Of a DNA stretch of 24,470 bases, positions 3,364 to 23,698 are shown piece after piece; position 1 is the first letter of the stretch; each line of letters opens with the position of its first letter. The DNA is from a virus (Duplodnaviria > Heunggongvirae > Uroviricota > Caudoviricetes): IMG/VR virus record IMGVR_UViG_2909272501_000001, one strand, 5' to 3'. A program made the position numbers and the translations under genes. The notes under the pieces were generated by a model. That model saw nothing but the letters and a program-made list of their open reading frames with translations, made no database searches and was not told the DNA's origin.

Positions 3364-3377
3364 GGTGTTGTTCTCCT

Positions 3378-3698
3378 TCAGTGCAGTACCGGCGCTTTTA
3401 TGTGACGGGCACAGAGTTCATCCATCACAACCAGCCCGAGAAAGGACAGCGACGGCGCGGCCTTCAGGGGGCCGGATTCCATTAAATCTTCCAGCAGGGC
3501 ACAGGCTATCTGACGCCCTTTTTCCTCACCGTGCTGGCGCAGATAAAAGCCCTCCAGCTCAGCGGCGATGGCCGCCTCCAGTGACTCAAGGGTGAGATGC
3601 GGGTAGCGGTGCTGACGTTCGCACACGGTCAGCCAGGCACAGGCGACAGCGCGACGGTAAAGGGCAGCGCGTAAGACGGGCGGTAAGGGTGTTTTCAT
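3378..3698 (-). CDS. Hypothetical protein, 106 aa, immediately upstream of alpha (position and length match what I recall as P4 orf106)
   Basis: ORF with RBS GGGAGGA upstream; stop 15 bp before the alpha start; GC-rich backbone codon usage. Confidence 0.5.
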
Positions 3699-3833
3699 TT
3701 GCTTTCCTCCCTGTGACAGATGACTGCATTCCGTGCCGGTTGCATTAACTGATAAGGCATATCTGCGTCTCCTGAAGACGTGCGTATCCCTGCGCGAATA
3801 CGCACATTTAATTTTTCGGGTGTCGTTTTTTAA

Positions 3834-4289: not shown

Positions 4290-4569
4290 GCGTCCTGTCT
4301 CCCCGGTCTTTCTGCTGGGCGAGAAAATCACGGCACAGGCCTTTGGCTTTCAGCTCATTCAGCACAAAATCAATATCCTCATTCAGGTAGCTGAAAATAT
4401 GCGGAATGTAGAGCTGATGCAGGCCGGAGAGTTCACGGTGAATCAAATCACCCCCAACAAACTGGGATACGGCGCTGGCGCGGTTGAGCTTATGGTAAGC
4501 CTCAATGCTGAGGTGTTCACGGGCGTCATGACGCGCTGAGACGGTCTGAGGGGCTTTTTTATTACGCAC
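4282..4569 (-). CDS. Hypothetical small protein, 95 aa, GTG start; possibly the epsilon-equivalent of the P4 left operon
   Basis: ORF in operon context. GTG start overlaps the stop of the upstream ORF (GTGCGTAA). The epsilon assignment rests only on length and order, not on recognised sequence. Confidence 0.45.
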
Positions 4570-5161
4570 GGGACACCCCCATCACCGGCAGACGGGCAGC
4601 AAGGGAGAGCACATAGTCACGGACAAGGGAACGGCGGGCACTGCGTTCATCACCGGCGACGGTGCGAAGCATGCAGATACGGGGATGACGGTCTGCGCGA
4701 CGGACAGCCGCAAACACAAAGACAAATTCAGGGTGTGAAGGGGTAAGGGTCGTAGCCATAAGGCAACCTCCGATAACAGCATAAATGACGCTATCGCCGG
4801 AGTTTCCACGCTCGATGGCGATAGCCCAGACGGGGGTGGAAATACCGGCGTTATCGGAAACCGGCCAGCCCGGAGGCTGCCCCGCCTGAGCTACCATTGA
4901 CTCTGCGGTATAATGAGCGGACGCGGGCAGAATGCACGGAGTGCCATTTGCTCGACTGACCACACACCACACCATAATCTGGCGCTCTGTGGCGTTGATT
5001 GCGACACAAAAAAAGACGCATGGCGCGTCATATGTCGCCGATAACATACTCGGGTTTCCACGCCCGGCTGCCGATTTTGCGGCAGCGGAAAAACTATATC
5101 CGCAAATGCCGGAAAAAGGCAAGCCAGAAAAAGGGAGTTTTTGCAGAGCGGGCATCATCAT
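4562..5161 (-). CDS. Uncertain ORF (199 aa from the internal Met; 214 aa on the track) covering the position where P4 carries its kil/eta/cI immunity region
   Basis: Open frame whose stop overlaps the next gene's start, but the translation is low-complexity and several other frames are also open in this GC-rich stretch. May be a misread of small genes and/or an RNA locus. Confidence 0.2.
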
Positions 5162-5424
5162 GCGTCGTACCCCCGTTTGCGTCCGGCAATGCGTCCGGCC
5201 ATCCATGCGGTGACTTCAGAGTGCAGCCAGGCCACATTTTTACCGCCAAGACTCACCTGCGGCGGAAATTCCCCCTTACGGATGAGTTCGTAGATGGTCG
5301 AGCGTGACAGGCCGCACAGGTGCATCACTTCCGGAAGACGCAAAAAACGCTCCTGTGTGATGTCCGGCAGCGGCATCAGTGGCGTCACAGGGGCAGGAGA
5401 CGGGGAAGAAAAAACAGCTTGCAT
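5158..5424 (-). CDS. AlpA/Vis-like small DNA-binding regulator (88 aa)
   Basis: Motif ...[29 protein letters not shown]... is typical of the AlpA/excisionase-like HTH family. RBS GAGG 8 nt upstream of the ATG at 5424. Same position and length as what I recall as P4 orf88 (vis). Confidence 0.65.
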
Positions 5425-5702
5425 CGGGCTACCTCGTTAATGTCCATACAGCACCGGATAAGTCCGTCCGGCTTCGGGTAGCGCTTTATTTTGTGAATAT
5501 TTTTGGCAGACGCAACAGGGGGGATTTGTTCCGGCAGCCTTACAATGGCTGTGTGTTTTTTGCACATCAGCGCCAGATAGCTTTAAAACGCTCTGGAAGG
5601 AGCTGGAAAAAATTATAGTGAAATACAAATTGTTTTTTCTTATTTATTTCAGTTAATTAATAAAAATAAAAAGTAATAAACAGCACAAAAAGTCCATGAA
5701 CG

Positions 5703-5806
5703 GGTGAACAGTGGTGAACAGACGGTGAACAGTCATTACTGCGATTGTTCACCCTTTAACTTACTGTATTACTTATCTTTTTTCTTATGGTGAACAGAGG
5801 TGAACA
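5703..5806. repeat. ori-like iteron cluster: six copies of GGTGAACA/TGTTCACC
   Basis: Octamers at 5703-5710, 5713-5720, 5724-5731, 5746-5753 (inverted), 5789-5796, 5799-5806, inside an AT-rich intergenic region ~4.8 kb from the crr-like repeats. P4 ori1 lies about 4.5 kb from crr and carries the same octamer (established knowledge). Confidence 0.65.
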
Positions 5807-5885
5807 GTAAAATATAAAAAAACAAACAGTAAGCCGGTTTTTCCTGCGACCTTTTCCTGGCTTGCCGGTCTGAGGATGAGTCTCC

Positions 5886-5903
5886 TGTGTCAGGGCTGGC
5901 ACA
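5886..5903 (+). promoter_or_regulatory. TGT-N12-ACA dyad; candidate Ogr/Delta-type activator site of the late promoter upstream of sid
   Basis: TGT (5886-5888), 12 nt, ACA (5901-5903), located ~75-90 bp upstream of the sid ATG. P2/P4 late promoters carry this dyad upstream of the -35 region (established knowledge). Confidence 0.4.
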
Positions 5904-5975
5904 TCTGCAATGCGTCGTGTTGTTGTCCGGTGTACGTCACAATTTTCTCAACCTGAAGTGACGAGGAGCCGGAAA

Positions 5976-6710
5976 ATGTCTGACAACACCATCCCTGAAT
6001 ATCTGCAACCCGCACTGGCACAACTGGAAAAGGCCAGAGCCGCCCACCTTGAGAACGCCCGCCTGATGGATGAGACCGTCACGGCCATTGAACGGGCAGA
6101 GCAGGAAAAAAATGCGCTGACGCAGGCCGACGGAAACGACGCTGACGACTGGCGCACGGCCTTTCGTGCAGCCGGTGGTGTCCTGAGCGACGAGCTGAAA
6201 CAGCGCCACATTGAGCGCGTGGCACGCCGGGAGCTGGTACAGGAATATGACAATCTGGCCGTGGTGCTGAATTTTGAACGCGAACGCCTGAAAGGGGCGT
6301 GTGACAGCACGGCCACCGCCTACCGGAAGGCACATCATCACCTTCTGAGTCTGTATGCAGAGCATGAGCTGGAACACGCCCTGAATGAAACCTGTGAGGC
6401 GCTTGTCCGGGCAATGCATCTGAGCATTCTGGTACAGGAAAATCCGCTCGCCAACACCACCGGGCATCAGGGCTACGTCGCACCCGATAAAGCTGTCATG
6501 CAGCAGGTGAAATCATCGCTGGAACAGAAAATAAAACAGATGCAAATCAGCCTCACCGGCGAGCCGGTTCTCCGGCTGACCGGACTGTCAGCGGCAACAC
6601 TTCCGCACATGGATTATGAGGTGGCAGGCACACCGGCACAGCGCAAGGTGTGGCAGGACAAAATAGACCAGCAGGGAGCAGAGCTTAAGGCCAGAGGACT
6701 GCTGTCATGA
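5976..6710 (+). CDS. sid: Sid, capsid size determination (external scaffold) protein
   Basis: 244 aa from the ATG at 5976 preceded by RBS GAGGAG (track ORF starts earlier at 5910). Length matches recalled P4 Sid. Followed by delta and psu in P4 order. Stop overlaps the delta start (ATGA). Confidence 0.85.
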   Translation: MSDNTIPEYLQPALAQLEKARAAHLENARLMDETVTAIERAEQEKNALTQADGNDADDWRTAFRAAGGVLSDELKQRHIERVARRELVQEYDNLAVVLNFERERLKGACDSTATAYRKAHHHLLSLYAEHELEHALNETCEALVRAMHLSILVQENPLANTTGHQGYVAPDKAVMQQVKSSLEQKIKQMQISLTGEPVLRLTGLSAATLPHMDYEVAGTPAQRKVWQDKIDQQGAELKARGLLS

Positions 6711-7207
6711 TTTACTGCCCGTCGTGTGGACATGTTGCTCACACCCGTCGCGCACATTTCATGGACGATGGCACCAAGATAATGATTGCACAGTGCCGGA
6801 ATATTTATTGCTCTGCGACATTTGAAGCGAGTGAAAGCTTTTTCTCTGACTGTAAAGATTCAGGAATGGAATACATTTCAGGCAAACAGAGATACCGCGA
6901 TTCACTGACGTCAGCCTCCGGCAGTATGAAACGCCCGAAAAGAATGCTTGTTACCGGATATTGTTGTCGGAGATGTAAAGGCCTTGCACTGTCAAGAACA
7001 TCGCGGCGTCTGTCTCAGGAAGTCACCGAGCGTTTTTATGTGTGCACGGATCCGGGCTGTGGTCTGGTGTTTAAAACGCTTCAGACCATCAACCGCTTCA
7101 TTGTCCGCCCGGTCACGCCGGACGAACTGGCAGAAAGCCTGCATGAAAAACAGGAACTGCCGCCAGTACGCTTAAAAACACAATCATATTCGCTGCGTCT
7201 GGAATGA
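6707..7207 (+). CDS. delta: Delta, Ogr-family zinc-finger late transcription activator (tandem Ogr-like domains)
   Basis: 166 aa. Two Cys4 Ogr-type motifs: CPSCGH...CRNIYCSATF and CCRRCKG...CTDPGCGLVF. Confidence 0.85.
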   Translation: MIYCPSCGHVAHTRRAHFMDDGTKIMIAQCRNIYCSATFEASESFFSDCKDSGMEYISGKQRYRDSLTSASGSMKRPKRMLVTGYCCRRCKGLALSRTSRRLSQEVTERFYVCTDPGCGLVFKTLQTINRFIVRPVTPDELAESLHEKQELPPVRLKTQSYSLRLE

Positions 7208-7280
7208 GGGCTGCCGGTTAACACCGGCCGTCGCCGCACACCGTATTTTTATTCTTCAGCATGATGAGAAAGAGATAACG

Positions 7281-7853
7281 ATGGAAAGCACAGCCTTACA
7301 GCAGGCCTTTGACACCTGTCAGAATAACAAAGCAGCATGGCTGCAACGCAAAAATGAGCTGGCAGCGGCCAAACAGGAATATCTGCGGCTTCTGTCAGGA
7401 GAAGGCAGAAACGTCAGCCGCCTGGACGAATTACGCAATATTATCGAAGTCAGAAAATGGCAGGTGAATCAGGCCGCCGGTCGTTATATTCGTTCGCATG
7501 AAGCCGTTCAGCACATCAGCATCCGCGACCGGCTGAATGATTTTATGCAGCAGCACGGCACAGCACTGGCGGCGGCACTGGCACCGGAGCTGATGGGCTA
7601 CAGTGAGCTGACGGCCATTGCCCGAAACTGTGCCATACAGCGTGCCACAGATGCCCTGCGTGAAGCCCTTCTGTCCTGGCTTGCGAAGGGGGAAAAAATT
7701 AATTATTCCGCACAGGATAGCGACATTTTAACGACCATCGGATTCAGGCCTGACGCGGCTTCGGTGGATGACAGCCGTGAAAAATTCACCCCTGCGCAGA
7801 ACATGATTTTTTCGCGTAAAAGTGCGCAACTGGCATCACGTCAGTCTGTGTAA
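7281..7853 (+). CDS. psu: Psu, polarity suppression / capsid decoration protein
   Basis: 190 aa, N-terminus MESTALQQAFDTCQNNKAAWLQRKNELAAA..., last gene of the sid-delta-psu operon. Confidence 0.85.
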   Translation: MESTALQQAFDTCQNNKAAWLQRKNELAAAKQEYLRLLSGEGRNVSRLDELRNIIEVRKWQVNQAAGRYIRSHEAVQHISIRDRLNDFMQQHGTALAAALAPELMGYSELTAIARNCAIQRATDALREALLSWLAKGEKINYSAQDSDILTTIGFRPDAASVDDSREKFTPAQNMIFSRKSAQLASRQSV

Positions 7854-7888
7854 AATTCCCCGAAAATCCGCCCGTTTTTACTGAAAAA

Positions 7889-7972
7889 AGCCATGCATCG
7901 ATAAGGTGCATGGCTTTGCATGCGTTTCCCTGCCTCATTTTCTGCAGACCGCGCCATTCCCGGCGCGGTCTG
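7889..7972 (+). other. Two strong hairpins after psu (7889-7915, 9-bp stem; 7945-7972, 11-bp perfect stem); possible terminator and/or packaging-region structure
   Basis: AGCCATGCA...TGCATGGCT and CAGACCGCGCC...GGCGCGGTCTG inverted repeats. Only the first is followed by a weak T-rich tract. Confidence 0.3.
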
Positions 7973-8017
7973 AGCGTGTCAGTGCAACTGCATTAAAACC
8001 GCCCCGCAAAGCGGGCG

Positions 8018-8036
8018 GGCGTGGCGGGGGGAGCAT
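8018..8036. other. cos-like site (candidate cohesive-end sequence)
   Basis: GGCGTGGCGGGGGGAGCAT matches 15 of 19 positions of the P2/P4 cohesive end as I recall it (GGCGAGGCGGGGAAAGCAC). It sits right after psu, where cos lies in P4, next to a GC-rich imperfect palindrome (7999-8019). Confidence 0.35.
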
Positions 8037-8118
8037 TGCGCGCTAAGGCTGATATTATAATTTTCTTTAATTCTATTTGGTATTTTGGCTTTATTCGTCA
8101 GAAGGAACGTTTAGAAAT

Positions 8119-8146
8119 AGACCACTACAATGGATTGTAGCGGTCT
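8119..8146 (-). terminator. Hairpin terminator candidate ending the int-RT-partner operon
   Basis: 12-bp inverted repeat AGACCACTACAA/TTGTAGCGGTCT (one G-U-compatible mismatch), 4-nt loop, ~10 nt downstream of the partner gene stop, followed by a modest T-rich tract on the minus strand. Confidence 0.4.
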
Positions 8147-8155
8147 GCATGATAT

Positions 8156-8896
8156 CTAGCGTTGCATTTCAGTTACTATGAAATTTTCTTCTGTAATAGA
8201 ATTCATTATCTCAAAGTACAATTCTTCAGGTTGAATAAACGCCAACTCTTTGCAAAGGTTGACAATGGTATCACTATAAGTGATACCCATCCGAGGATTG
8301 AAAAGCTCAAATCTCTTGATGTTTCTTTTGTTTTTTGAGTAAAAGTTTAAAGTGAAATATATTAGCACCTGTCTAAGATCGTAAACACTAAACTTCCTAT
8401 CTCCTGATTTTATTTCCACAAGAACATTTGAATAATAAATATCGCCATATGAATTATTTATTACTCCGCATCCATCGAATTGTGGAGACACTTCAATTTG
8501 GTTTTCCATTCCATATCGAGACAAAATGTTTCTTGCTATTTCCCTTATGGCATTGTACTCAACCATGCTTAAGGGTAGCTTGAAGTTAGAACCGTAAGCG
8601 AACCGCTGTAGATATTCTTTTGTTTTTTCAAAAACAACCTGAAAATCAGCATTATGGAAGATATCATGTGCTGAAAGAATATTTCTGTCTAACGAATCAT
8701 TCTGTATTGCCCTATATAAATTAAATGCGCACTCATTAACAAAGACGTTATTTGACCTATTAGCGCAGTCATCTAGAGGAGGATAAACGTCCTCGATGAG
8801 ACTGCCGTTAATGATGCGTATGAAATTATTAGCATTTGGAAGCAATTGATTCCAAAATGAAGTGAATTTTCGAGAAAACGTTAATTCAGATATCAT
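8156..8896 (-). CDS. Hypothetical 246-aa protein, partner of the reverse transcriptase; possible nuclease-like effector
   Basis: ATG overlaps the RT stop (ATGA at 8893-8896), with RBS GAGGA inside the RT 3' end. Very AT-rich. Segment GDIYYSNVLVEIKSG could be a D...ExK (PD-(D/E)xK-like) core, but this is unverified. Confidence 0.75.
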   Translation of the reverse strand: MISELTFSRKFTSFWNQLLPNANNFIRIINGSLIEDVYPPLDDCANRSNNVFVNECAFNLYRAIQNDSLDRNILSAHDIFHNADFQVVFEKTKEYLQRFAYGSNFKLPLSMVEYNAIREIARNILSRYGMENQIEVSPQFDGCGVINNSYGDIYYSNVLVEIKSGDRKFSVYDLRQVLIYFTLNFYSKNKRNIKRFELFNPRMGITYSDTIVNLCKELAFIQPEELYFEIMNSITEENFIVTEMQR

Positions 8897-10521
8897 AGCG
8901 CATCCTCAAGATTTCTTGCGGTATGCCTTTTACTTGCCCAATCCCTGTAAATCACCTCTACAAAGTTGAATGTTTTCTTATTATGCTCTCTCCAGTGCCG
9001 TCCTTCATCACCTAAGATGTAACTGGAAACGATCAATAGTCTTCTCTGCAACGGATGCATTGCAGAGAAATTTTTTTTGATATCAGAAAGCCATGCGTAA
9101 GAATTAATTTTTGCCATTGACTGTGTAACTATGTTCTTGACTAAGATGCTTTCTGGATTGTTATTGTATATTTCACTAAGGATTAGGGTGGATTTTTCTG
9201 AATTTTCTTTTGAGAGCATTCGGGCTACATAGGCTAAGTTGAGCTCAGTACTCAAAATATATGAATCTTGTTTAATTAGTGCAGTTATTTTATCAAGAAT
9301 AATATCTTTGGTTTCTGTGCTTAATTTTTGCCAGTTGGAGTTAGCTACTTGAATTATAGTTGTAAATATTGGATATAACTCATGCAAGTTATTAAACATT
9401 ACTTTGAAAGCACTACTTATTATTTCATCTGATGTTGCTGAGAATGCCTTTATCAAATGCTTGCTAAAAGATTGGTTAATTTTTGATTTTTGTAACTCAC
9501 TACTCAGCATAGCTAACAAGTCAAAATCTTTTAAAGATTCCTTTATCTCTTCATATTCCTCTATCGCATTTGCTGAGTAAGGATCGAATCTTATAGGAAG
9601 ACTCATAAATTTAGCCTTCATAGGAGATTCTTCATCTTCATCATTACCATGCAACTTAGCTTTAGTTACTGAAAGGAACTCTTCTTTAGTAACAATATTG
9701 GTTTTTTGTTTCTGTAAAGTTAGCCCTTCATTTTCCATCAGTTTTTTACTAAGCAAAGTTAAAATCTTATGAGCATCCTCTCTAGAGTTACAAAAAATAA
9801 CAAAGTCGTCGACATAACGCTTATAGTTGATTCTATTCATAGACAATAATTTATCAATAGAATCTAGAGCTAGTTCTGCTAATATTCTAGAGGCAGGACA
9901 TCCAACTGGTACTCCATATGATTTTGTTTCACTAAATGTCTGTAGTAATTTCTTGATTTTCCCAGAGTAATCTTTATTGGGGTCGACTCTATCTAACGCA
10001 TTTTCTAAACGGTGGTGATAAATACGCGGATAGAAATCTGCTATATCGCATGTAAGTACATACTTTATTTCATCGTTAGAACATTCAGAGATACTGTCTT
10101 CTTGATATTTTCTCCAAGAGATCTCTTTATCAAAAAGAGAACCATCAGCAAGGTTTGGTTTAAAGCGATATGAATAAACCTGCGTTTTAGTAGATCTATT
10201 CCTTTCAATATCATCAGCGATTTTTAAAACTAACCCAAGAAAAAAAGCATTCCAGAATGGATCAATTTGGGTCGCCCACCTGTAACCATAATAACCAATA
10301 CTTGAAAAGCTATTAATTATGTTTGGTGGAATCTCGATCCTTTTATTTTCAAAGTCATTAAATGTTTGCATTAATGCAGTTTTTACTTTCTCCTTATCAT
10401 CTTCAAATAACCGACTTTCAAATGGGTAAGGGAAAATATCTGTATCGCCGTGCTTTATAATATTTTCCAATGCAAGCTCAAAGCAATTTTCTAGTTTACT
10501 ACTATCAAACTCGTTACTCAT
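8893..10521 (-). CDS. Reverse transcriptase, 542 aa, with ~230-aa alpha-helical C-terminal extension; UG/Abi-like defence-associated RT candidate
   Basis: RT motifs in canonical order: LTCDIADFYPRIYHHRL (motif A-like), SYGVPVGCPASRILAELAL (motif B'-like), KRYVDDFVIF (YVDD catalytic motif C), NEGLTLQKQKTNIV (motif D/E-like). RBS AAGGAGA; start overlaps the int stop by 8 nt. No retron-type VTG motif seen. Confidence 0.85.
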   Translation of the reverse strand: MSNEFDSSKLENCFELALENIIKHGDTDIFPYPFESRLFEDDKEKVKTALMQTFNDFENKRIEIPPNIINSFSSIGYYGYRWATQIDPFWNAFFLGLVLKIADDIERNRSTKTQVYSYRFKPNLADGSLFDKEISWRKYQEDSISECSNDEIKYVLTCDIADFYPRIYHHRLENALDRVDPNKDYSGKIKKLLQTFSETKSYGVPVGCPASRILAELALDSIDKLLSMNRINYKRYVDDFVIFCNSREDAHKILTLLSKKLMENEGLTLQKQKTNIVTKEEFLSVTKAKLHGNDEDEESPMKAKFMSLPIRFDPYSANAIEEYEEIKESLKDFDLLAMLSSELQKSKINQSFSKHLIKAFSATSDEIISSAFKVMFNNLHELYPIFTTIIQVANSNWQKLSTETKDIILDKITALIKQDSYILSTELNLAYVARMLSKENSEKSTLILSEIYNNNPESILVKNIVTQSMAKINSYAWLSDIKKNFSAMHPLQRRLLIVSSYILGDEGRHWREHNKKTFNFVEVIYRDWASKRHTARNLEDAL

Positions 10522-11698
10522 TCACATTCTCCTTAATAAAAATATAATCTGAATACCACTGCATCATATCACGGCGTTTATCAATATATTGAGCATGATT
10601 ATACGTACCTCTAATATTATTCTTATCTATATGAGCAAGCTGTATTTCTATCCAAGCCGAATCATATCCTTTTTCGTGGAGGATAGTAGATAAGGAATGT
10701 CGAAATCCATGACCAGTAAGTTTTCCACCATAACCAATACGCTTGATAACTTGGTTAATACTCGCCTCACTCATAGGCTTGTTCGGATCGTTCCGCCCCG
10801 GAAAAACATAACTATACTTCCCTGTCATCATCTTGAGTTCATTTAGCAAATCTAACGCTTGAGTCGACAAAGGCACAAGGTGTGATCTGCGCATTTTCAT
10901 CCTTTCAGCAGGAATTTCCCAAATAGCGTTATCTAAATCAAATTCTGACCATAATGCCGCACGTAATTCGATGGTTCTAACACCTGTAATCATGAGCAAT
11001 TTCGTGGCAATCAGGACAAGCCGACTTCCGGTATATCCGTTTAAGGCGCGAAGAAAATCAGGTATCTCATTAGCCTTTAAGAACGGGAAATGATTTGATT
11101 GGTGTACATTGAGGGCGCTTGAAAGATCCGCAGCAGGGTTAAACTCAGCCCTTCCAGTAGCAATGGCATAGCGGAAAACTTCTGAGCATCGCTGCCGAAC
11201 TTTGCGCATTTTTTCTAATGCACCGCGCTTTTCGATTTTACGCAGCACATTAAGCAGTTCTAGCGGTTTAATCTCTCCCACTGGCCTTGTTCCCACATAA
11301 GGAAAAATGTCGTTCTTAAACGCTTCCATGATGTCTGATGCATATCCCGCCGACCATTTGGTAGACTTCTGTTGATGCCACTCTCTGGCTATCTTTTCGA
11401 AGGCGTTCTCTGACTCTGTTTGCAGAGCCAGCTTTTGCTCTTTTCGAACCTCACTAGGGTTCTTTCCTTCTGCCACAAGTTTTCGAGCTTCATCACGACG
11501 GGAACGAGCATCAGCAAGAGTGATCGTTGGGTAAACACCAAGCGAGATCATTTTGGGTTTACCGGCATAGCGATAACGAAATCGCCAGCTTTTACTTCCA
11601 TTTGGCTCTACAAGTAAAGACAACCCTTGCCCATCCCCAAGTGTATAGGCTTTAGCTTCAGGTTTAGCACGGCGAATCTGCATATCATTTAGGGGCAT
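10514..11698 (-). CDS. int: P4-type (DUF4102-family) tyrosine integrase
   Basis: 394 aa. N-terminal ...RRAKPEAKAYTLGDGQGLSLLVEPNGSKSWRFRYRYAGKPKMISLGVYP... is characteristic of P4/CP4-57-type integrases. Catalytic R...HxxR...H...Y residues (GVRTIEL, GHGFRHSLS, LAHIDKN..RGTYNHAQY). Confidence 0.88.
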   Translation of the reverse strand: MPLNDMQIRRAKPEAKAYTLGDGQGLSLLVEPNGSKSWRFRYRYAGKPKMISLGVYPTITLADARSRRDEARKLVAEGKNPSEVRKEQKLALQTESENAFEKIAREWHQQKSTKWSAGYASDIMEAFKNDIFPYVGTRPVGEIKPLELLNVLRKIEKRGALEKMRKVRQRCSEVFRYAIATGRAEFNPAADLSSALNVHQSNHFPFLKANEIPDFLRALNGYTGSRLVLIATKLLMITGVRTIELRAALWSEFDLDNAIWEIPAERMKMRRSHLVPLSTQALDLLNELKMMTGKYSYVFPGRNDPNKPMSEASINQVIKRIGYGGKLTGHGFRHSLSTILHEKGYDSAWIEIQLAHIDKNNIRGTYNHAQYIDKRRDMMQWYSDYIFIKENVNE

Positions 11699-11749
11699 GT
11701 GTATAGAATTCCAAAATCGAACAGGAACATATACATAATCCTATACACA
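11698..11749. repeat. Arm-type 9-mers near the int start: TGTGTATAG (11698-11706, inverted) and CTATACACA (11741-11749)
   Basis: Same 9-mer as at 613-633; the first copy overlaps the int start codon. Confidence 0.3.
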
Positions 11750-11861
11750 TTTAGTACTGGATTCTACTGGAAAGTTATGGACTAATACGAACAGTAAAAA
11801 CAAAAAATCTTTTATAAAACAGTGCGGTTATGGATAAATACGGATGTTTGAAGAAGTGGAG

Positions 11862-11881
11862 ATGGTGCCGATAATAGGAGT
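11862..11881. repeat. Right copy of the imperfect direct repeat; candidate att core shared by both elements
   Basis: ATGGTGCCGATAATAGGAGT, see 537-556. The first 9 nt (TGGTGCCGA) resemble the reverse complement of a tRNA 3' end, but no T-arm follows. Confidence 0.5.
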
Positions 11882-12023
11882 AAAACACTCGATTAATCTC
11901 GTGTTAATGCCATCACCTACGACCATTACTAATTGATTGAATCTGATAGAAAAATTATCATTTTCTATACCTTACAATCAATTTACACATTACAAACGCT
12001 CCGACACTTTAGCCGGAGATTTT

Positions 12024-13301
12024 ATGAGATACAAGCCTAACCAATACTTAATCTGTGATTCTTACGGTAACTACTATTTAAGGATCACGCTGCCTGTGTA
12101 TATGCAGCCCTTTTTTGAAGGAAAAAGGACGTTTGTCAGAAGTCTACACACAAGTAATCTTCGTGTGGCACGTCGAAAGCGTGATCAGATTGCAGATGAA
12201 TACCATTGCTTACGGGAGAGTGTTGCCCCTGTAAACAGCACAATAGAAAACACGCTGGAACTGTTACGCAGTAAGGCTAAATACGCCAAAACAGCTACCA
12301 GAATGCAAGATACAGCGTCTTCGTGTCCGTCATTGCTTAAAATTCTTGAAATCTACCTGACAATTAACAGCACGAAGAAGAAGCCAGCCACTTTAGCTAA
12401 GGCAAGAAAAGCGGTAGAGATGTTTCTCTCCTACCGTAAAAAGCCTGATATTGCATTGCAAGATGTAAGCCGCACCACTGTTACAGGCTGGATTGAACAC
12501 ATGCAAAAAACCCTTTCACAACAATCAATTGCAAATTATATCAGCCCAATGGTCCAGCTATGGGAGTTAGCTTCATCACGTTACCACGATGCGCCAGAAA
12601 GGGCGCTCTCCCCCTGGCGAGGGCATAGGCTTGATGTGGCACAAAGTAGAGAGAGCTACGAGGCATTTTCTAACAAAGAGCTATTGCAGGTGTTGCAAGT
12701 ATTTTCCGGTGATTCAGCAGAAAACAAAGAAATGACGGCTTTGTGTCTTATCGGTTTATATACAGGTATGCGGATCAATGAGATAGCAAGTATCACAATA
12801 GACGATGTGAAAGAGATCGAAGGTGTGCTGTGTTTTGAAATCACACAGGGAAAAACGAAAGCTGCGGCACGTCTTGTGCCTGTGCATAACCTTATCACTC
12901 CGTTGGTGTTGTCGCTGCGTGAAAAGCCTCACAATGGCTTTTTGTTCTATCACGCCAGCATTACAGAACGTGCTGACGGTAAACGCTCTACGTGGCATAC
13001 ACAACGATTTACAAGAGCTAAACGAAAGGCTTTAGGGGAAAAGGGAACAGAAAGGAAAGTGTTTCATTCTCTGAGACACGGAGTAGCACAGCTTCTTGAT
13101 CGAAATCAAATTCCAGAAGACAGGATCGCCCTTCTCCTGGGCCATACACGCGGCAATACAGAAACATTCCGCACATATAGCAAGAATGCAGCTTCTCCAG
13201 TAGAGCTTAAAAAATATATTGAGCTTTTACGCTACCCTGAAATAGAGAAAGGCTTATCAATCAATAAAAAATCAAATTTAAGGCGTAAAACAACGCCATA
13301 G
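12024..13301 (+). CDS. Second tyrosine recombinase/integrase (425 aa from the ATG at 12024; track ORF begins at a TTG at 11937)
   Basis: Catalytic signature GMRINEI (R), FHSLRHGVAQ (HxxR), LLGHT (H), TYSKN (Y). RBS GGAG 5 nt before the ATG. AT-rich. Confidence 0.75.
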   Translation: MRYKPNQYLICDSYGNYYLRITLPVYMQPFFEGKRTFVRSLHTSNLRVARRKRDQIADEYHCLRESVAPVNSTIENTLELLRSKAKYAKTATRMQDTASSCPSLLKILEIYLTINSTKKKPATLAKARKAVEMFLSYRKKPDIALQDVSRTTVTGWIEHMQKTLSQQSIANYISPMVQLWELASSRYHDAPERALSPWRGHRLDVAQSRESYEAFSNKELLQVLQVFSGDSAENKEMTALCLIGLYTGMRINEIASITIDDVKEIEGVLCFEITQGKTKAAARLVPVHNLITPLVLSLREKPHNGFLFYHASITERADGKRSTWHTQRFTRAKRKALGEKGTERKVFHSLRHGVAQLLDRNQIPEDRIALLLGHTRGNTETFRTYSKNAASPVELKKYIELLRYPEIEKGLSINKKSNLRRKTTP

Positions 13302-13381: not shown

Positions 13382-14059
13382 CTATTGTTTAAATACTGGC
13401 GTTACAACGTCTTGCCCTGGGCTTTTTTGATTTTTCTGTTCTGTTGTATTTACCTGCATTTTAACCTGTCCCCCTACAGATTTATTTGGTGCTGTTTTTA
13501 CAGCAATAGCATTAGTGGTGGCCTTAGAGACAAGACGAATTTGCTCAAAATCAAGAGTAAACAATAAGCTTTCGCTTGCTTCTTCTTCGTAAGACATGCC
13601 AACTAACACAACGTTGTCATAATTTTTTAACTCAGTGACAAGTAGGAAAGGTTGGCGACTGTCCATCAACTGATTTAGGTATTCAAGCATAAGCATACGT
13701 CGATTGCCGTTAATTCCCGCATTCTTAATCATATCGGGATTGAGTTTCAATACGGTTTCAGAGATACGCCCCTGTAATGTGAACTTGTTATTCCGTATTT
13801 GAACATGATCACTAACTTCTGATCCTGATTCGACGGCATAGCTTGTAACGTCTGCATTTCGGCTAACTTTCGTCGATTCCACGTTATCAAATGATAATGC
13901 CCGGTAGTCATTGTAAGCAGCATTTGCACCACTGCCGAGGTTAGAGGTAATAATCGCAAAGCCGTTACCCCCTTTAGTTGTTCTACCGTTGCTATCGTTG
14001 CTTGTGCTGTTGATTTTCGCCTCAGTCGGGCGACCAATGGTTAACGGACCCATTGCCAT
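13382..14059 (-). CDS. Hypothetical protein, 225 aa (possible virion-associated protein)
   Basis: ORF with RBS AAGGA; last gene of a co-oriented leftward block that includes capsid-like candidates. No recognisable motif. Confidence 0.45.
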   Translation of the reverse strand: MAMGPLTIGRPTEAKINSTSNDSNGRTTKGGNGFAIITSNLGSGANAAYNDYRALSFDNVESTKVSRNADVTSYAVESGSEVSDHVQIRNNKFTLQGRISETVLKLNPDMIKNAGINGNRRMLMLEYLNQLMDSRQPFLLVTELKNYDNVVLVGMSYEEEASESLLFTLDFEQIRLVSKATTNAIAVKTAPNKSVGGQVKMQVNTTEQKNQKSPGQDVVTPVFKQ

Positions 14060-16335: not shown

Positions 16336-17367
16336 TTACGCAGCAGATCCGAAGATGATAGCTTGCGGAATGTTGTTTACTGGCAGATAAGATGTCTCAG
16401 TAACCACAGATGGGAATTGGAATTCATCCTTGATTAGATATTGGTGATGTAACACGGCATCTTGACCTAACTCAGCATGACGCACACCAACGCCGCTATG
16501 AAGCTGATAGCACTGTGCCGCTTTATCCATTACTGGAACAATTGCGAAACCGTTCTCTCCGATGTGAGCAACAATCTCAGGAAACATTGACACATCAATA
16601 ACAGTGATCCCACCAATCTGGAAAGAGTCATAGGCTGGGTTAGAATCAACCATACGGGTAAACAGGGCCGTAGCACTCGCATCACCTGCATATTTCACCA
16701 TGTCACTGATCAGCGGGTTAGATGACAAACCATCAGCAGCAGCGCCAGCAGCAAAGATAATTACACCAGTTCGCTTTGCAGCAAGACCAGACCCCAGCTT
16801 TTCACTCTGTAAGCGCACCGCTTTACGAATAGCAAGGAACGGGTTAACAGTAGTCGATGCAAAGTCGATAGCGGGTACCGTGGTTTTAGCCTGACCGTCG
16901 AGGAAGTCGAGATCACCTTGTCCGGCATATTCAGATTCAACTTTCAGGCCCAGCAGCGCGGTAATCAGATCCACTTCAACACGGTTTGCGTGTGAACGGT
17001 AATGTGCCTCAGAGAAATCATTAACCGCTACCAGCATAGCATCAGAACGGTTTGGATATTGGCGGCTGTATTGTTCCAGGTCACGAGAAGTAACAGCGTT
17101 AATACTGCCGACGTGTTTCATCTGGAAAAGTTTGTTTGACCATTCCTGACGTTTAGAGGCGTTCCAGTCGCTTTGAGCGTAAGGCGAGGTTTCCCCAGCT
17201 ACCTGCACAAACTGATCAATCAGGTCGGTAAGAAGAATGCTGTTTTCTGTATGATATTGCACATCGAACAGATCGAGATTAGTAATCAGGGTATTAAGTG
17301 CATTCTCATAAGCAAATGGAGTTACTACCGCAGTATTAACGCCAAAATATGTTGATAAATCATTCAT
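16336..17367 (-). CDS. Hypothetical protein, 343 aa; major-capsid-like candidate (speculative)
   Basis: Size and position directly after a ~125-aa decoration-like gene resemble the lambda D/E arrangement. No direct sequence similarity to lambda gpE that I can confirm by eye. Confidence 0.5.
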   Translation of the reverse strand: MNDLSTYFGVNTAVVTPFAYENALNTLITNLDLFDVQYHTENSILLTDLIDQFVQVAGETSPYAQSDWNASKRQEWSNKLFQMKHVGSINAVTSRDLEQYSRQYPNRSDAMLVAVNDFSEAHYRSHANRVEVDLITALLGLKVESEYAGQGDLDFLDGQAKTTVPAIDFASTTVNPFLAIRKAVRLQSEKLGSGLAAKRTGVIIFAAGAAADGLSSNPLISDMVKYAGDASATALFTRMVDSNPAYDSFQIGGITVIDVSMFPEIVAHIGENGFAIVPVMDKAAQCYQLHSGVGVRHAELGQDAVLHHQYLIKDEFQFPSVVTETSYLPVNNIPQAIIFGSAA

Positions 17368-17769: not shown

Positions 17770-17967
17770 TTATTTTCCTTTCAGTTGTTTAATTTTAGAT
17801 TTAAGGGCATCAGCAAGACTAACCGCATCAGCCGATTTAAATAATTGAGCAGTGGTAGAACGAAGACTTTCGGGAGTAACTCCCAACAGTGCGGCAACCT
17901 TAATGAGGTTTTCATCACTAACAATCATCGTTTCCCCGTCTTTGCTGATAATCATTTCTTGTTTCAT
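17770..17967 (-). CDS. Small hypothetical protein (65 aa from the ATG with RBS AGGAAC; track ORF extends to 18009)
   Basis: ORF with plausible RBS; first gene of the leftward structural-like block. Confidence 0.3.
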   Translation of the reverse strand: MKQEMIISKDGETMIVSDENLIKVAALLGVTPESLRSTTAQLFKSADAVSLADALKSKIKQLKGK

Positions 17968-18948
17968 AAATAACGTTCCTGTTAGTGCCAGACAAATAAA
18001 AAGCCCCAATGCCGTAAGAGGTTCTGACCAGCAAAGGGGCTTTAACGTGCGGGCAATTACATAATTGATAAGTTAAACTATAAGAGGATTAAACATATCA
18101 GCAAATACACTTTTTAAATATACTTGATGATATGCTTAAAGGGTGAATAGATACTCCTGAAAACATGCTCTTAAGAAAACATGCGGAATCAATCAGGAAT
18201 ATCTATTCGGGGCGCGGTGGCTAACCGCTATCTTTCATGGTGTGGATGCACCAGTCAGATTTTAAGGAATCACTATTCCAATCTACTCACAGATTAAATT
18301 TTTAATAAGGATTAACTACACCAACAGTAATCTACCGTTTCAGAAAATCGTTTCACAACCAAAGATTATAGATCCGCATTCTATAAAACCCGTTTTGCTA
18401 TCAATATTTCCAAAGTTTATTGCACCATTCTTAGCTAAACTCTCTCTACTTGCGGCTAACGCTATGCAGATGATAGTTTTTTGACAACAACTTAATAGAT
18501 TATTCTGTTACTAACTTCCGTCATTAAATAAGAGTTTAATGATGTTAGTAAATAGTTATAAAATATAACTATCAGTGTAAGGCTCTTTAATGTTTTCGGA
18601 CAAAATAAGGAGCTTTAGGATAAGCATAGATGAAAAATAAGAGCGGGAAGGGCAAGGAGATAACACCTACCCGCTTTTATCAAAAATTAAGCACAATGCC
18701 TAACAACATTCATCAACACAACGTAGAAACAATCAACAATCAAAGAGGGAGTTATGATTATTCTAAAACTTCTTGATAGATGGAAGGTAATATTTGTTAG
18801 AGGTTAATGCCACTCAACCTTTGAGGCTATCACCTTCCATATGCAGGGATTTATGACAGTAGAAGGATTAACACCAACTAAAATCTTTTAATCTACCCCT
18901 AAAATTATTATATAACAAAATCATCATAAATGCAAATGATTTTCATTA

Positions 18949-19251
18949 TCATTTAGAGAAAATAGCACTTTTTGCTAAATCATTTACTAATTGCTGAATC
19001 TCTTCACTTGCAGCCTTTAACGTGCTGGCGGTGTCTGTGATGGTTTGAGTGCACATCTTGGCATCTGATAGCTCTAAATCGCTCACCAGAGAGACAAAAT
19101 CTTCTAAGCATACATTGAGCTTCATTAAGCTAATAACGCATTGAGAGAGCGTATAATCGCATAAATCTGAATAGGCTTGATTTATTCTTGTTTGTAGTGA
19201 GATAGTCAGATCTAAAAGTTGTTCCATTGCATTGCTAATATCTTCTTCCAT
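18949..19251 (-). CDS. Hypothetical acidic helical protein, 100 aa
   Basis: ORF; start ATG overlaps the stop of the upstream 81-aa gene. Confidence 0.4.
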   Translation of the reverse strand: MEEDISNAMEQLLDLTISLQTRINQAYSDLCDYTLSQCVISLMKLNVCLEDFVSLVSDLELSDAKMCTQTITDTASTLKAASEEIQQLVNDLAKSAIFSK

Positions 19252-20026: not shown

Positions 20027-20596
20027 TTAAAAGGGTAGTGAATCATATATTGTGCTCTCACTTTTGAGATCAATTATCAAAGAGTCAAAATCATTTTCAC
20101 AAAGATAGATATTCTTTGAATCTAATGCTCGTTTTACAAAATCTTCTGTTTCTTCGTGCGGTGGTTTCTTCTTATCAAGGGAAAGAAGCCAAGTAAAAAT
20201 TTCGGGCCGCTCAGGGAACTCTGGCTCTTGTGTTTCTTCTTCAACGATGATTTCGGAAACATTCAATATTTCATTAGATTCGTCTTCTTTCTCAGAAGGA
20301 TCAGGTAGTGATGATTCTCCTTTTGGAATATCAAGCACTCGATAAAGGTTAGAGCTTCCTGGTCGTGCATCTTTTATAATTAATCCCATTTCGAGCAATT
20401 TCTTAACCCTTTCTTCTGCTGCTCTTGGTGTTATGCCAAAAACATCGCCTATCTTAGCGTAAGAGGGAAATGCACGATCAAACCCTCTCAGATAGCAGTA
20501 AAGGTTTTTAGCACTATCTGTAAATTTATGCCCGTTTACTTGGCTTATTTTTAGAATCCACATAGGAACTTTTACAAATTGTTCTTCATTAATCAT
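20027..20596 (-). CDS. Winged-helix DNA-binding protein, 189 aa from the ATG at 20596; replication initiator / replisome-organiser-like candidate
   Basis: RBS AAGGAGA 5 nt before the ATG. Segment NLYCYLRGFDRAFPSYAKIGDVFGITPRAAEERVKKLLEMGLIIK resembles wHTH initiator N-domains. Acidic C-terminal half. Same operon as an RHH protein and downstream of the iteron cluster. Confidence 0.5.
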   Translation of the reverse strand: MINEEQFVKVPMWILKISQVNGHKFTDSAKNLYCYLRGFDRAFPSYAKIGDVFGITPRAAEERVKKLLEMGLIIKDARPGSSNLYRVLDIPKGESSLPDPSEKEDESNEILNVSEIIVEEETQEPEFPERPEIFTWLLSLDKKKPPHEETEDFVKRALDSKNIYLCENDFDSLIIDLKSESTIYDSLPF

Positions 20597-20649
20597 TAAA
20601 AATCTCCTTGATGTAATCACGCTCTACGGCGCTACTATGGTGATAAAAA

Positions 20650-20820
20650 TCACTTGCTTTTGTTTGAGAGTGTTTCAGCCTCTCTTTTCAACATATCAAG
20701 AATGTAATCTGTAACAGTGATACGTTTACTTCTGGCTTCTTTAAACAACACCTGAAATACTTCATCAGGAATATGAAAGCAAGTGCGTGGTTGCCTTTTC
20801 TTTTCTGTAGTTTCGCTCAT
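20650..20820 (-). CDS. Ribbon-helix-helix (CopG/Arc-like) DNA-binding protein, 56 aa from the internal ATG
   Basis: Strong RBS AAGGAGA before the ATG at 20820. Sequence KRQPRTCFHIPDEVFQVLFKEARSKRITVTDYILDMLK fits the RHH beta-strand-helix-helix pattern. Confidence 0.55.
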   Translation of the reverse strand: MSETTEKKRQPRTCFHIPDEVFQVLFKEARSKRITVTDYILDMLKREAETLSNKSK

Positions 20821-20839
20821 AGTTTTCTCCTTCTCTTCT

Positions 20840-21040
20840 TTACTCTGTTTCAGATTCTTTTTCAGATCCTTTTTCATTTTTTCTTAATTCATCAATAATT
20901 TTTAGTGCATCGTCAAAGCATTTTTCACGCTCTGGATAACCACAGCGTCGCGCTGTGTTCCTGTTCATCCTTACTTTAAAACGGTTGATCTCACCACGTT
21001 TCCAGGCTTCCACAATATCCTGTGGAGTGAAATATTTCAT
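20840..21040 (-). CDS. Hypothetical small protein, 66 aa
   Basis: Strong RBS AGGAGG before the ATG at 21040; first gene of the leftward operon below the iteron region. Confidence 0.45.
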   Translation of the reverse strand: MKYFTPQDIVEAWKRGEINRFKVRMNRNTARRCGYPEREKCFDDALKIIDELRKNEKGSEKESETE

Positions 21041-21883
21041 TAATTAACCTCCTATTCTATTTAGTTAAAAGAAATAGACACCTTGCAAGCCTTGGGCTTC
21101 AAAGTGCGATGCATTGGTTTAATTATTTAAAGGATAAGAATGTTTTCCTGCCCCTAATATTACTTTACCACGACTAAAGGCTTTTGTCAACCCCCCAGCC
21201 ATAAAAATATTGATCATTTTCAGTGTGTTATGATTTTTCTTAGCAATTCGTGCTCTTACGAATACTCCAATTCTTCATTATTGTCTAAAACGCTCTAAAA
21301 CGCGTTCTAACGAGGTTTTGATAAAAACAATACATTCCCTTATGTAATGGCTGTTTAGCTCGCCTACGGTTTGATTTAAGCGGTAGAAACTCATCTACTA
21401 CCTAACATCTTTAAACCATATTTTTCTTTTTTGTCTGTTTGATGGTTGATCTATAGTTATGCGTTAGCATCCCCAAAGGGGTAACGCTACCCTAATTGCA
21501 TTCGCAAGAACATTGCACAAGAAATTTATTTTAGATGATTGATGATCGTTAGATGGTAGTTAGTTAATTATCGTTCTGCGCACAGCGCAAGACTATTTAG
21601 CCTTACGCAAGCCGTAGGCTATTTGCACATAGTAGATTACATATTCGTTGTGAGCGGAAAGCGAACATAGATCTACTAACTAACATTAACAAACAAAAAC
21701 TATGTGTTATGAGAAGTATCAGTCTAACTGACTAACACTCTAACTTGTGCAAGGTTCTGGCGAATGCCAATAGATTAAGGGATAGTCGAAGACTCCCTAA
21801 CGGGTATCCCTATAATTATTCTTTAAAGATAAAAGAATTTATAAAAGATAATTTAATTGTAGTTTGATAGTTGATCTAATAGG

Positions 21884-22021
21884 TAACAAAATTCTGTAGG
21901 GGTGGCTAACAGTTTTCTGTGGGGGTGTCTAACATAATTCTGTTAGGGTTGGGGTAACAGTTTTCTGTTAGGGTGCATATTTCTTTAAAAGTTAAGGATA
22001 ACAGAATTCTGTGGGGGTAGC
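21884..22021. repeat. Iteron cluster: five ~23-bp direct repeats, consensus TAACA(n)3TTCTGT(n)GGGGT
   Basis: Copies begin at 21884, 21907, 21930, 21955 (tandem, 23-25 bp spacing) and 21999 (after an AT-rich spacer), upstream of the operon containing the RHH and wHTH genes. Confidence 0.6.
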
Positions 22022-22854
22022 TCACAGTGACCTACCGTTACATCCATCACATAACATCTGTGCAATGATCTTCTTATAATCAGTAAAAGTCTTTCTTGCT
22101 ATCAAAAATTAAACATCTAAAACAAGCTTAAATTCAAGATTAATTGATGATTAATCCCTGTGTAATTCCATACTAAAAAATCCAAGAAAAATGGCTTCAA
22201 AATGCAATTCTTACTTTCTTCACTTTTGCGTCATCATCAGCAAAGCCTTATGTTATGCGGCATATAGCGCATCACTGCAAAATTGTTGCTCAATAAACGT
22301 TCTATCATTTGTTGAACAAGTTCTTTCACGTGTTGAAAATTTATGTTTAAATTTGCTTTCAATCTTTAATGTGCAATCACTATCAACATAAAAATAAAAA
22401 ATCTTCTATTATATTTCATAGCATACAAAAGTCAATAGAAGCCCTCTCGTGCTCCTACGTAAAAAATCCACCATTTTTCCCCTGATACATCAACTCAAGG
22501 CGTTCTATGTGTTCCTTAGTGCATATTACGATTATTATGTTAAATGTATTTTGGCCTATATTTTGACCTGCACCCGCATAAACACTGGTTTCATCGCTTA
22601 CAGCCCTTGTGAGACGTGGTGCTGTTTCTAGCATCTGATCCGACATAAAACCGATCATTCTCGTGTTTAGTGAAAGTTTAGTGAGAGACATTACAGAAAG
22701 GCTTTCTGTGTAATGATTTAATAGGTAAAAACGATGTTGATTACGCAAGAAAATTCCTTGCTGATATTTGGGGATTCTGGATTTTCCAGATCGGGGGGCG
22801 CTGAAAATCGCGTTAAGCACCTCTCGCAATCTAGCCATAAGGGAGGGGATTCAT

Positions 22855-22929
22855 ATGTATTTAGATGTATTTATAGCTATTTATGGCTATTTATTTTTTA
22901 TTTACCTTTATTTGAAAACAACCTTATAA
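22855..22929 (+). CDS. Candidate 24-aa hydrophobic peptide MYLDVFIAIYGYLFFIYLYLKTTL
   Basis: ATG 5 nt after a strong SD (AAGGGAGGGG). Very short, so a coding call is tentative. Confidence 0.25.
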   Translation: MYLDVFIAIYGYLFFIYLYLKTTL

Positions 22930-23146
22930 ATCAATAAGATACAGAACAACCTGTTTATATTTTAATCACTTAAATTACGTTTAATACCCTTAAATCACCT
23001 GAAAATAACCTTAAATACCCCAATAATTAATTTTAACGATTCCTGTGCTCTCTTCTACATTGCAAAAAGGCAAAAAAAGCCCATAGAGGCACAAAAATAT
23101 TAAAACCAATAACTCAATAATGCCTCTACAAGAGCTTCTCTAACTG

Positions 23147-23698
23147 TTATTTTTGATTGAGCTTACATCGATCCCATTGTTCTGTCGTTCTTGTGATACG
23201 ATCGCTTATTGCAAAATTTAATAGCCAAGAATCATAAGCATAAACCTTGCTTTTATCATCTGCCATCATAAACTTGCCGTTAGCATTCAGTTTTGGCGAT
23301 ATCAAATATGTTCCATTTAATCTGTTAGCCTTGAAGCTATCTGCATATAAAGTTACTTGTGCGTATCCCTGAACACGTAATGCCCCTAAACGTCCGTTTT
23401 CGATTGATGCAATAGAGTATTGGCAAAGATAATTTTTGGCAGCAGGAGTCGTTTTCACTCCTTCAGTTTTTCGTGAATTATTTGATTGCGAGCTTCGAAT
23501 AGAGGATGAAGGATAAGAGTATGAATGATTTTTATAAGATGAAGGGGCATAAGAGCCAATCCGGCACGTCTTACCAACAGCTATACACGAGTTACCACAA
23601 GGTATTCCTTTTTTGCAGTTTTTAGCAACTGCGGTAGAAGTTCCCCCTACAAACAACGTTGTAAAAATCATCATCCTCACAAATGCAGACCTGCGCAT
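23147..23698 (-). CDS. Secreted Cys-rich protein, 183 aa
   Basis: N-terminal signal-peptide-like segment (MRRSAFVRMMIFTTLFVGGTSTAVA), then a 4-Cys cluster (CKKGIPCGNSCIAVGKTC), a Ser/Tyr-rich linker and a C-terminal domain. Confidence 0.55.
   Translation of the reverse strand: MRRSAFVRMMIFTTLFVGGTSTAVAKNCKKGIPCGNSCIAVGKTCRIGSYAPSSYKNHSYSYPSSSIRSSQSNNSRKTEGVKTTPAAKNYLCQYSIASIENGRLGALRVQGYAQVTLYADSFKANRLNGTYLISPKLNANGKFMMADDKSKVYAYDSWLLNFAISDRITRTTEQWDRCKLNQK

Follow-up and report, generated by a model that had tools for sequence, protein, structure and literature searches.

A probably non-coding 10-bp repeat array beside a likely copy of a phi92-type phage genome-end site in a putative phage satellite from Escherichia coli

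The segment of interest in this study (22855-22929) lies in a 24,470-nt stretch of DNA (IMG/VR record IMGVR_UViG_2909272501_000001), referred to here as the window, which originates from an E. coli chromosomal island at the tRNA-Thr gene thrW. Two satellite-like elements stand in tandem at this site (Table 1). A P4-like satellite occupies 1-11900, and its variable hotspot (8156-10521) encodes a type 8 defence-associated reverse transcriptase (Drt8 RT, E 5e-166) together with a partner PD-(D/E)xK protein (RTasPDDEXK, E 5.5e-69). The second element, referred to as the thrW element, contains the segment. In strain KY202 the thrW element is present alone between thrW and the distal tyrosine integrase, and it measures about 12.3 kb.

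Several proteins of the thrW element resemble virion proteins. The Dit-like protein is 53% identical to proteins of Escherichia phages of about 150 kb, including ESCO5, ESCO13 and nieznany, and the tape-measure-like protein shows 29-31% identity to Stephanstirmvirinae tape measure genes. The relatives of the capsid-like protein (42-56% identity) belong to Pfam PF03864 (Phage_cap_E) and are named major capsid protein. This protein had no match in sequenced phages by tblastn, and a locus search with it for close relatives returned near-identical E. coli elements only. Profile searches of the 16 element ORFs (all against PHROGs, the 10 largest also against Pfam and an overlapping 10 against NCBIfam) identified no terminase or portal. 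No tRNA or tmRNA was found in the window, and an Rfam scan of the whole window at the gathering threshold identified only C4, isrK and c4-a1b1, all in the neighbouring P4-like satellite. Two stretches of about 1-1.4 kb, 17967-18949 and 21040-22455, are without convincing ORFs, and the second holds the iterons. In O26:H11 the position matching this second stretch has about 3 kb without an annotated gene.

The thrW element is widespread. Of 5426 complete E. coli genomes, 427 have homologues of 22700-23150, and the identity is at least 99% in only 65 of these and 90-95% in 280. Relatives of the element occur in Klebsiella, Enterobacter, Cronobacter and Citrobacter. Elements of Klebsiella, Cronobacter and Enterobacter share the architecture and gene order but have a diverged form of the phage-like block described below. 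The variants also differ in the recombinase genes near this block. A gene for a Hin-type serine invertase lies just left of the conserved module in some E. coli variants (in KY202, L024 20310-20849), and one for a small tyrosine recombinase (186-192 aa) lies just right of the block, in the same orientation, in the variants from Klebsiella, Cronobacter and Enterobacter. Neither convincing crossover sites nor flanking inverted repeats were found that would define an invertible segment for the Hin-type invertase. In addition, a 4-kb contig labelled “MAG: Bacillota bacterium” (L008, JAEYLX010000052.1) carries a nearly unchanged module of the E. coli invertase type and is most likely a binning contaminant.

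Table 1. Positions of features in the window and, where a locus handle is given, in variant elements
Feature	Position	Strand	Remark
P4-like satellite: 777-aa alpha-like primase	1030-3363		
P4-like satellite: C4/CI antisense RNA	4814-4901		
P4-like satellite: isrK	5009-5086		
P4-like satellite: sid/delta/psu-like genes	5910-7853		
P4-like satellite: integrase	10514-11698	-	Back to back with 11937-13301 (+)
Tyrosine integrase, thrW-distal end	11937-13301	+	PF00589
Dit-like tail or baseplate protein	13382-14059	-	PF21821, E 2e-27
Tape-measure-like protein, 613 aa	14107-15948	-	phrog_16051
Capsid-like protein (lambda-E-like)	16336-17367	-	phrog_29, E 1e-4
Replication-initiator-like HTH protein	20027-20620	-	phrog_270, E 1.2e-8
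Arc-like protein	20650-20877		
Five iterons (TAACAnnnTTCTGTnGGGGT), 23-nt period	21884-22030	.	Presumed element origin
Terminator-like hairpin	22745-22761	+	Directly 5' of block
Conserved non-coding module, whole	22762-23079	.	Homology limits in 427 E. coli genomes, KY202, O26
Helper-phage-like block	22762-22838	+	TGATATTTG (22762-22770), 19-nt variable spacer, 29-mer 22801-22829
Purine-rich AAGGGAGGGG (SD of the sequence-only reading)	22839-22848	+	Conserved cis motif of module
10-bp variable-number tandem repeat, six TATTTR units	22849-22914	.	TRF period 10
24-codon ORF and stop	22855-22929	+	Judged a fortuitous reading frame
Weak sigma-70-like site (TTGAAA, 17-nt spacer, TAAGAT)	22912-22940	+	Just 3' of array; 9/12 positions match
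Three CTTAAAT-centred repeats (22969, 22989, 23010)	22965-23024	.	20 and 21 bp start-to-start
Recombinase genes in variants	L062 3835-4395; L065 3907-4485; L067 4213-4773		

The sequence-only reading described the segment as a strongly initiated hydrophobic peptide of 24 amino acids in an AT-rich intergenic region, similar to type I toxins or small membrane regulators, with a near-consensus Shine-Dalgarno (SD) sequence at a spacing of 5 nt. The setting is as described, with 27-33% GC and no convincing gene. The frame is also present, with an ATG start, 24 codons (MYLDVFIAIYGYLFFIYLYLKTTL) and a TAA at 22927-22929, and it is preceded by the purine-rich motif. The spacing differs from that description, being 6 nt (ATTCAT) from the end of the G run to the ATG, or 8 nt from the GGAGG core, and not 5 nt. 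With either gap, initiation at ATG 22855 is plausible on paper. The occurrence of this ORF with its SD is no more than chance gives, since 200 first-order Markov simulations of the window gave, per window, 4.6 +/- 2.2 ATG-initiated ORFs that were 24 codons or longer and had a strong SD pentamer 4-16 nt before the start.

Homologous loci (n = 39) were collected from genomes, IMG/VR and metagenomes and represented about 23 alleles. The SD and the 24-codon ORF are both intact in only two of these alleles, each 101 nt in length. The commonest allele (10 loci) contains no ATG and no frame of more than 10 codons, and in allele L011 the peptide is recreated from a different ATG, which lacks an SD, through repetition of the unit. 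The alleles measure 89, 99, 100, 101, 108, 109, 119, 121 or 129 nt, so lengths change in steps of about 10 nt and not of 3 nt, and the indels among them are of 10 nt or of 1-2 nt. For example, ATTCATATG is replaced by AT--ATAGG in O26:H11 and KY202, with loss of the start codon and a weakened SD; compared with the window, O26:H11 has a 1-nt insertion and KY202 has three extra 10-nt units. The purine motif (AAGGGARGG) persists as AAGGGAAGGGAT, AAGGGAAGGAAT or AAGGAAGGGAT in alleles without any ATG, and a Klebsiella relative has it as AAGGGAGATTC after the block. AAGGGARGG is part of the DNA module and is not a ribosome-binding site under selection.

The peptide reading was rejected with high confidence for several reasons. 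First, ORF 22855 is not conserved across homologous loci, since most of these loci lack the start codon, the SD and the frame, and the lengths change in 10-nt steps. Secondly, the peptide matched no toxin family in a Pfam scan with E values up to 10, which returned noise only (DUF7859 at E 0.45 and S-antigen at E 3.4), and it had no match among PHROG families. Third, an antisense RNA promoter on the opposite strand had been suggested as a check of the toxin reading. A consensus scan, which an unconventional promoter could escape, identified no promoter-like site on the minus strand over 22840-22960, and an Rfam search of 21000-23200 with E values up to 1 returned no credible sRNA; one implausible cyanobacterial match lay elsewhere. 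Lastly, the hydrophobic and aromatic composition of the peptide follows directly from the T-rich codons (TAT, TTA, TTT and ATT) of the repeat. The peptide does resemble type I toxins such as Hok, Ldr, Ibs, TisB, ShoB and Zor in its length of 24 amino acids, in its hydrophobicity and in lying between genes of a mobile element. It differs from them as a DNA repeat read in one frame, with neither conservation of the ORF, nor a family match, nor an antisense RNA signal.

A narrower version of the peptide reading is that the window's allele gave rise de novo to a lineage-specific small hydrophobic protein, either toxin-like or a membrane peptide, whose translation makes use of the strong SD. In this allele the GGAGG core and the ATG are suitably placed and the frame is open for 24 codons, and the allele is not rare, as indicated by the 65 element-carrying genomes of at least 99% identity noted above. 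However, this version is very improbable, because the commonest alleles do not conserve the ORF, the ORF and SD are expected by chance, no family, antisense promoter or sRNA supports the peptide, and its composition is dictated by the DNA repeat. In addition, the promoter-like segment found upstream in relatives is degenerate in the window's variant. The segment 22855-22929 is, in all likelihood, non-coding, and neither a toxin nor a small protein should be annotated at ORF 22855. The fallback offered by the sequence-only reading, that of a DNA element rather than a gene, is the one supported, in the form of a 10-bp variable-number tandem repeat within a conserved non-coding module.

The segment had also been called a TATTTA-rich low-complexity repeat. 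A TATTTR-rich repeat is indeed present, but it is more specifically a tandem array of period 10 as identified by Tandem Repeats Finder (TRF). The TATTTR units start at 22858, 22868, 22878, 22888, 22899 and 22909, at spacings of 10, 10, 10, 11 and 10 nt, and the KY202 array has 5.7 copies with a 97% match (TRF). The two-unit motif GCTATTTATRGCTATTTAT occurs nowhere else in the window, where 0.01 occurrences are expected, and none of 100 shuffles reached the observed count. Single copies of the unit show no enrichment in the rest of the window. The simple measure of A/T-tract phasing that was applied, with units 10-11 bp apart, placed the array region at the 74th percentile of the window. This phasing is unexceptional and does not support intrinsic bending. 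The array was also considered as the iterons or the unwinding element of an origin, and this candidate was rejected, since the iterons have a 23-nt period, lie about 830 bp away and are unrelated in sequence.

The array is restricted to the E. coli lineage, and in the relatives from other genera its position is occupied by the promoter of the recombinase gene. The array therefore does not belong to the core of the module in this family, and it may be neutral. It could be a slippage-prone, microsatellite-like spacer with no function of its own that is tolerated beside a functional site in AT-rich DNA. Its copy number varies freely among otherwise near-identical elements, and its absence from other genera, its lack of dispersed copies and its ordinary tract phasing would all be expected of such a spacer. 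On the other hand, all of the approximately 23 alleles at the 39 loci retain at least five units when these are loosely defined ([TG]ATT[TCA]A), although strict TATTTA counts drop to four, and no collapsed allele was found. The unit sequence and the 10-11 bp register are also preserved, and the array keeps a fixed short distance to the strongly conserved site on its left. A purely neutral spacer is considered unlikely, while a functional contribution of the array is itself rather doubtful.

The array is one part of a module whose order is TGATATTTG, a 19-nt variable spacer, a 29-mer, AAGGGARGG, the 10-bp array, the weak promoter-like site and the CTTAAAT repeats. The CTTAAAT repeats are highly conserved among alleles. 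The total number of sigma-70-like sites in the region equals the shuffle expectation, so the site at 22912-22940 is only a lead. The first part of the module, 22762-22838, hardly varies among 28 distinct satellite sequences, while the DNA on either side of it is polymorphic or has been replaced. The KY202-type variant has a different hairpin at the position of the terminator-like hairpin, and this hairpin lies at the end of its invertase gene. RNAalifold analysis of nine diverse versions of the block gave -1.04 kcal/mol, two invariant pairs and no covariation. A site acting at the DNA level was favoured because of this lack of consensus RNA structure and covariation, and the reading of the block as structured RNA was rejected. 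Sigma-70, sigma-54, IHF and boxB-like readings of the block were compared by eye, and none fits across the variants.

Two further reading frames adjoin or overlap the module. A 127-aa ORF on the minus strand (22455-22838) runs antisense through the phage-like block, and RefSeq annotates 22455-22748 as a 97-aa hypothetical protein. The 127-aa ORF has no family match, its 5' part overlaps sequence that is conserved as DNA in phages, and it is probably not a gene. To the right of the module, 23147-23698 encodes a 183-aa protein with an N-terminal hydrophobic segment and a Cys-rich region (phrog_2578), with its own terminator. In the window's variant this gene forms an insertion directly beside the module, and it is missing from the O26 and KY202 variants.

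The block closely resembles a specific site in phages. Positions 22791-22836 match 62 phage records with 44 of 46 nt identical, and nearly all of these records are Stephanstirmvirinae, namely phi92-like Justusliebigvirus and relatives that infect Klebsiella or Citrobacter. The invariant 29-mer at 22801-22829, CTGAAAATCGCGTTA/AGCACCTCTCGCAA (the slash marks the boundary discussed here), is identical to phi92-like phages at all 29 positions. In phi92 the match lies at 318-363 and straddles the inner edge of the left direct terminal repeat (DTR-L, annotated as 1-343), which reads ...AAAATCGCGTTA/AGCACCTCTCGCAA. In window coordinates the phage DTR boundary falls between 22815 and 22816. The placement of this boundary agrees among phages. 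Phage UAB_1 has the same DTR annotation as phi92, and a DTR of 342 bp was determined for BME3 by PhageTerm (PMC12210895). A Klebsiella phage record from another laboratory ends with ...AAAATCGCGTT and starts with AGCACCTTCTC, which places the boundary within 1 nt of that of phi92, and an AGCACCT motif follows both ends. Phage genera share the 26-mer AAAATCGCGTTAAGCACCTCTCGCAA without variation but differ in the sequences that flank it, and the DTR boundary is at the centre of this 26-mer.

These comparisons identify the 26-mer AAAATCGCGTTAAGCACCTCTCGCAA, with fair confidence, as the probable end-formation site of phi92-type phages. The exact genome-end site of these phages would thus be the conserved 26-29-mer, for which no mapping paper was found in the literature searched; the same literature contained no experimental mapping of phi92-type packaging signals. 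The block of the thrW element very probably derives from, or mimics, the DTR boundary of such a phage. In satellites of other genera the block has diverged and the core CGTTAAGCAC is intact, and the Klebsiella and Cronobacter blocks matched either nothing in the phage collection or the promoter-like part only.

The edges of the phage terminal repeat were also compared with each other. A similar motif follows each edge, and GTTG or GTTA precedes it. The edge motifs are AGCCTACTTTC and AGCACCTCTCGC in phi92 (L006, 1-20 against 344-360), and AGCACCTTCTC and AGCACCTCTC in the Klebsiella phage (L005, 1-20 against 345-360). This pattern suggests that one nuclease specificity, GTTR/AGCMC, may serve both DTR cuts. 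Each element has one GTTR/AGCMC site in the expected place. No mimic of the left DTR boundary was found in the element by a strict motif search or by blastn against the phi92 concatemer junction, to which only 22738-22835 of the window aligns. Two candidates for a left boundary were rejected: AGCCCTCTC at 22440 is a single near-match that is absent from the invertase-type variants, and GTTG/AGCCT near thrW in KY202 is on the wrong side. With only one boundary-like site found per element, the elements could not produce a terminal repeat of the phi92 type by the same route.

The best explanation of the observations as a whole, which is tentative and falls a little short of probable, is that the segment is cis-acting, non-coding DNA, a 10-bp variable-number tandem repeat that adjoins a copied end-formation site of the phi92 (Stephanstirmvirinae) type. 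In the putative helper phage, this site would form the inner edge of the 343-bp DTR and hence the mature genome end. The thrW element would be a satellite that presents the end-formation site of its helper to the packaging enzymes of the helper. The array, at 23-100 bp to the right of the cut site, would serve as an accessory array for protein binding or spacing, and its copy number would be expanded and contracted by slippage. Packaging was proposed because the element has tail genes related to those of the helper, its own capsid-like gene, no terminase and an exact copy of the helper end-site. We infer that a helper enzyme would act on the site, that the element would be packaged and that the array would contribute to this process. 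A packaging role for the module is possible on these grounds, although it is held with less than even confidence. Against packaging, all 21 metagenome contigs that carry the element look chromosomal or are fragments, and none of them is a free or circular copy.

A more specific form of this explanation may also be considered. The region 22762-23079 could be the cis signal of a group of undescribed satellites of about 12 kb in Enterobacteriaceae, with capsid-like, tape-measure-like and Dit-like proteins of their own, that hijack virulent phi92-type myoviruses. The helper terminase would recognise and cut the 29-mer, and the array would tune the success of the satellite in competing for this terminase. 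In this detailed form the proposal is improbable as it stands. In metagenome IMG 3300045988, a phi92-like phage contig and a contig with the capsid-like gene of the element (L009 and L059) are found together, which is a co-occurrence only.

An alternative to packaging is transcriptional mimicry. The block and its surroundings could copy the early promoter and leader region within the terminal repeat of the helper, so that genes of the element or a non-coding transcript would be switched on together with the immediate-early genes of the helper. In this case the array would supply upstream or operator sites, either to the weak promoter at 22912-22940 or to the Arc-like repressor of the element. 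Several observations are in agreement with this alternative. The Klebsiella, Enterobacter and E. coli KY202 relatives have a second segment that is homologous to 136-196 of the phage DTR, and this segment looks like a good sigma-70 promoter (TTGGCA, a 16-17 nt spacer and TATAAAT; in phi92, TTGACA, a 17 nt spacer and TAGACT). In KY202 the Hin-type invertase gene lies between this promoter-like segment upstream and the block downstream, and in the other genera the gene after the block is that of the small tyrosine recombinase, in the same orientation. Also, a promoter-like site is present directly 3' of the array, and the element encodes an Arc-like protein.

Other observations do not agree with transcriptional mimicry. 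The promoter-like segment is degenerate in the window's variant, in which only a weak similarity of 33 nt remains at 22324-22356, and the common variants have no plus-strand gene after the module. A conserved RNA structure is absent, and promoter-like sites in the region are no commoner than in shuffles. Moreover, mimicry leaves unexplained why the phage genome end is at the exact centre of the invariant 26-mer. Transcriptional mimicry as a whole is thus regarded as unlikely, although the promoter-like segment common to the relatives and the phage DTR, taken by itself, would fit a transcriptional role at least as well as a role in packaging. The two roles may also be connected. Packaging in T3 and T7 depends on transcription, and the segment resembling DTR 136-196 could be part of a transcription-coupled packaging signal.

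The explanation of a cis-acting array beside a mimic of the helper end-site may be compared with several known systems. The T7/T3 Pac signal at the concatemer junction consists of PacB for recognition and PacC for cleavage, and T7 packages a plasmid that carries both parts of its Pac signal (PMC9860248). The likeness is that a short cis segment from the junction suffices for the packaging of foreign DNA in a DTR phage. The satellites described here similarly keep a promoter-like DTR segment and a boundary site, although no sequence similarity to Pac is present. The layout of lambda cosN-cosB, in which cosN is the nicking site, is also shared, since short repeats in helical register form an array that lies within about 25-100 bp after a cut site. 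However, cosB consists of terminase and IHF sites, whereas the array described here has no sequence similarity to it, is lineage-specific, varies in copy number and would bind proteins only putatively.

Among satellites, a close parallel is with P4 and the P2 cos site, since P4 is likewise an integrative element of about 12 kb that has no terminase of its own and carries a near-exact copy of the end-site of its helper. The system described here differs in that the site is the inner DTR boundary of a virulent myovirus of about 148 kb and not the cohesive-end site of a temperate phage. It also differs in that one of two boundaries is copied, in that the element has its own capsid-like, tape-measure-like and Dit-like proteins, and in that packaging is proposed. 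The alpha primase, sid, delta and psu of P4 are absent from the thrW element, and these hallmarks belong to its neighbour at 1-11900. PICI, cf-PICI, PLE and PICMI resemble the thrW element in their integrase and replication module, their compactness and an apparent dependence on a helper, and PLE and PICMI also exploit virulent phages. The gene set of the thrW element differs from all of these, with its tape-measure-like and Dit-like genes, and of the terS, portal, protease, capsid and connector genes of cf-PICI only a capsid-like gene is present. Judged by the genes it carries, the thrW element is not a member of the P4-like, PICI, cf-PICI, PLE or PICMI groups. No description of a satellite of phi92-type phages was found in the limited literature searched, which included a December 2025 commentary on satellite classes.

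The element thus combines an apparent copy of the phi92-type end site with tail and capsid genes related to the same phages, and phi92-like phages are used in therapeutic cocktails. Should the element prove to be a satellite of virulent phages, both the efficacy of phages and the transfer of genes would be affected in E. coli, with EHEC of serogroups O26 and O103 among the strains concerned. The packaging explanation, if true, would also provide a simple plasmid-transduction assay for the packaging signals of DTR phages. In addition, sequences resembling the Fur-box consensus (for example, AATGATAATCATTATC) were observed in the phage terminal repeat just upstream of TGATATTTG, at 78-96 and 268-286 in phi92 (L006) and at about 262-285 in the Klebsiella phage (L005), which hints that early transcription in phi92-type phages may be regulated by iron.
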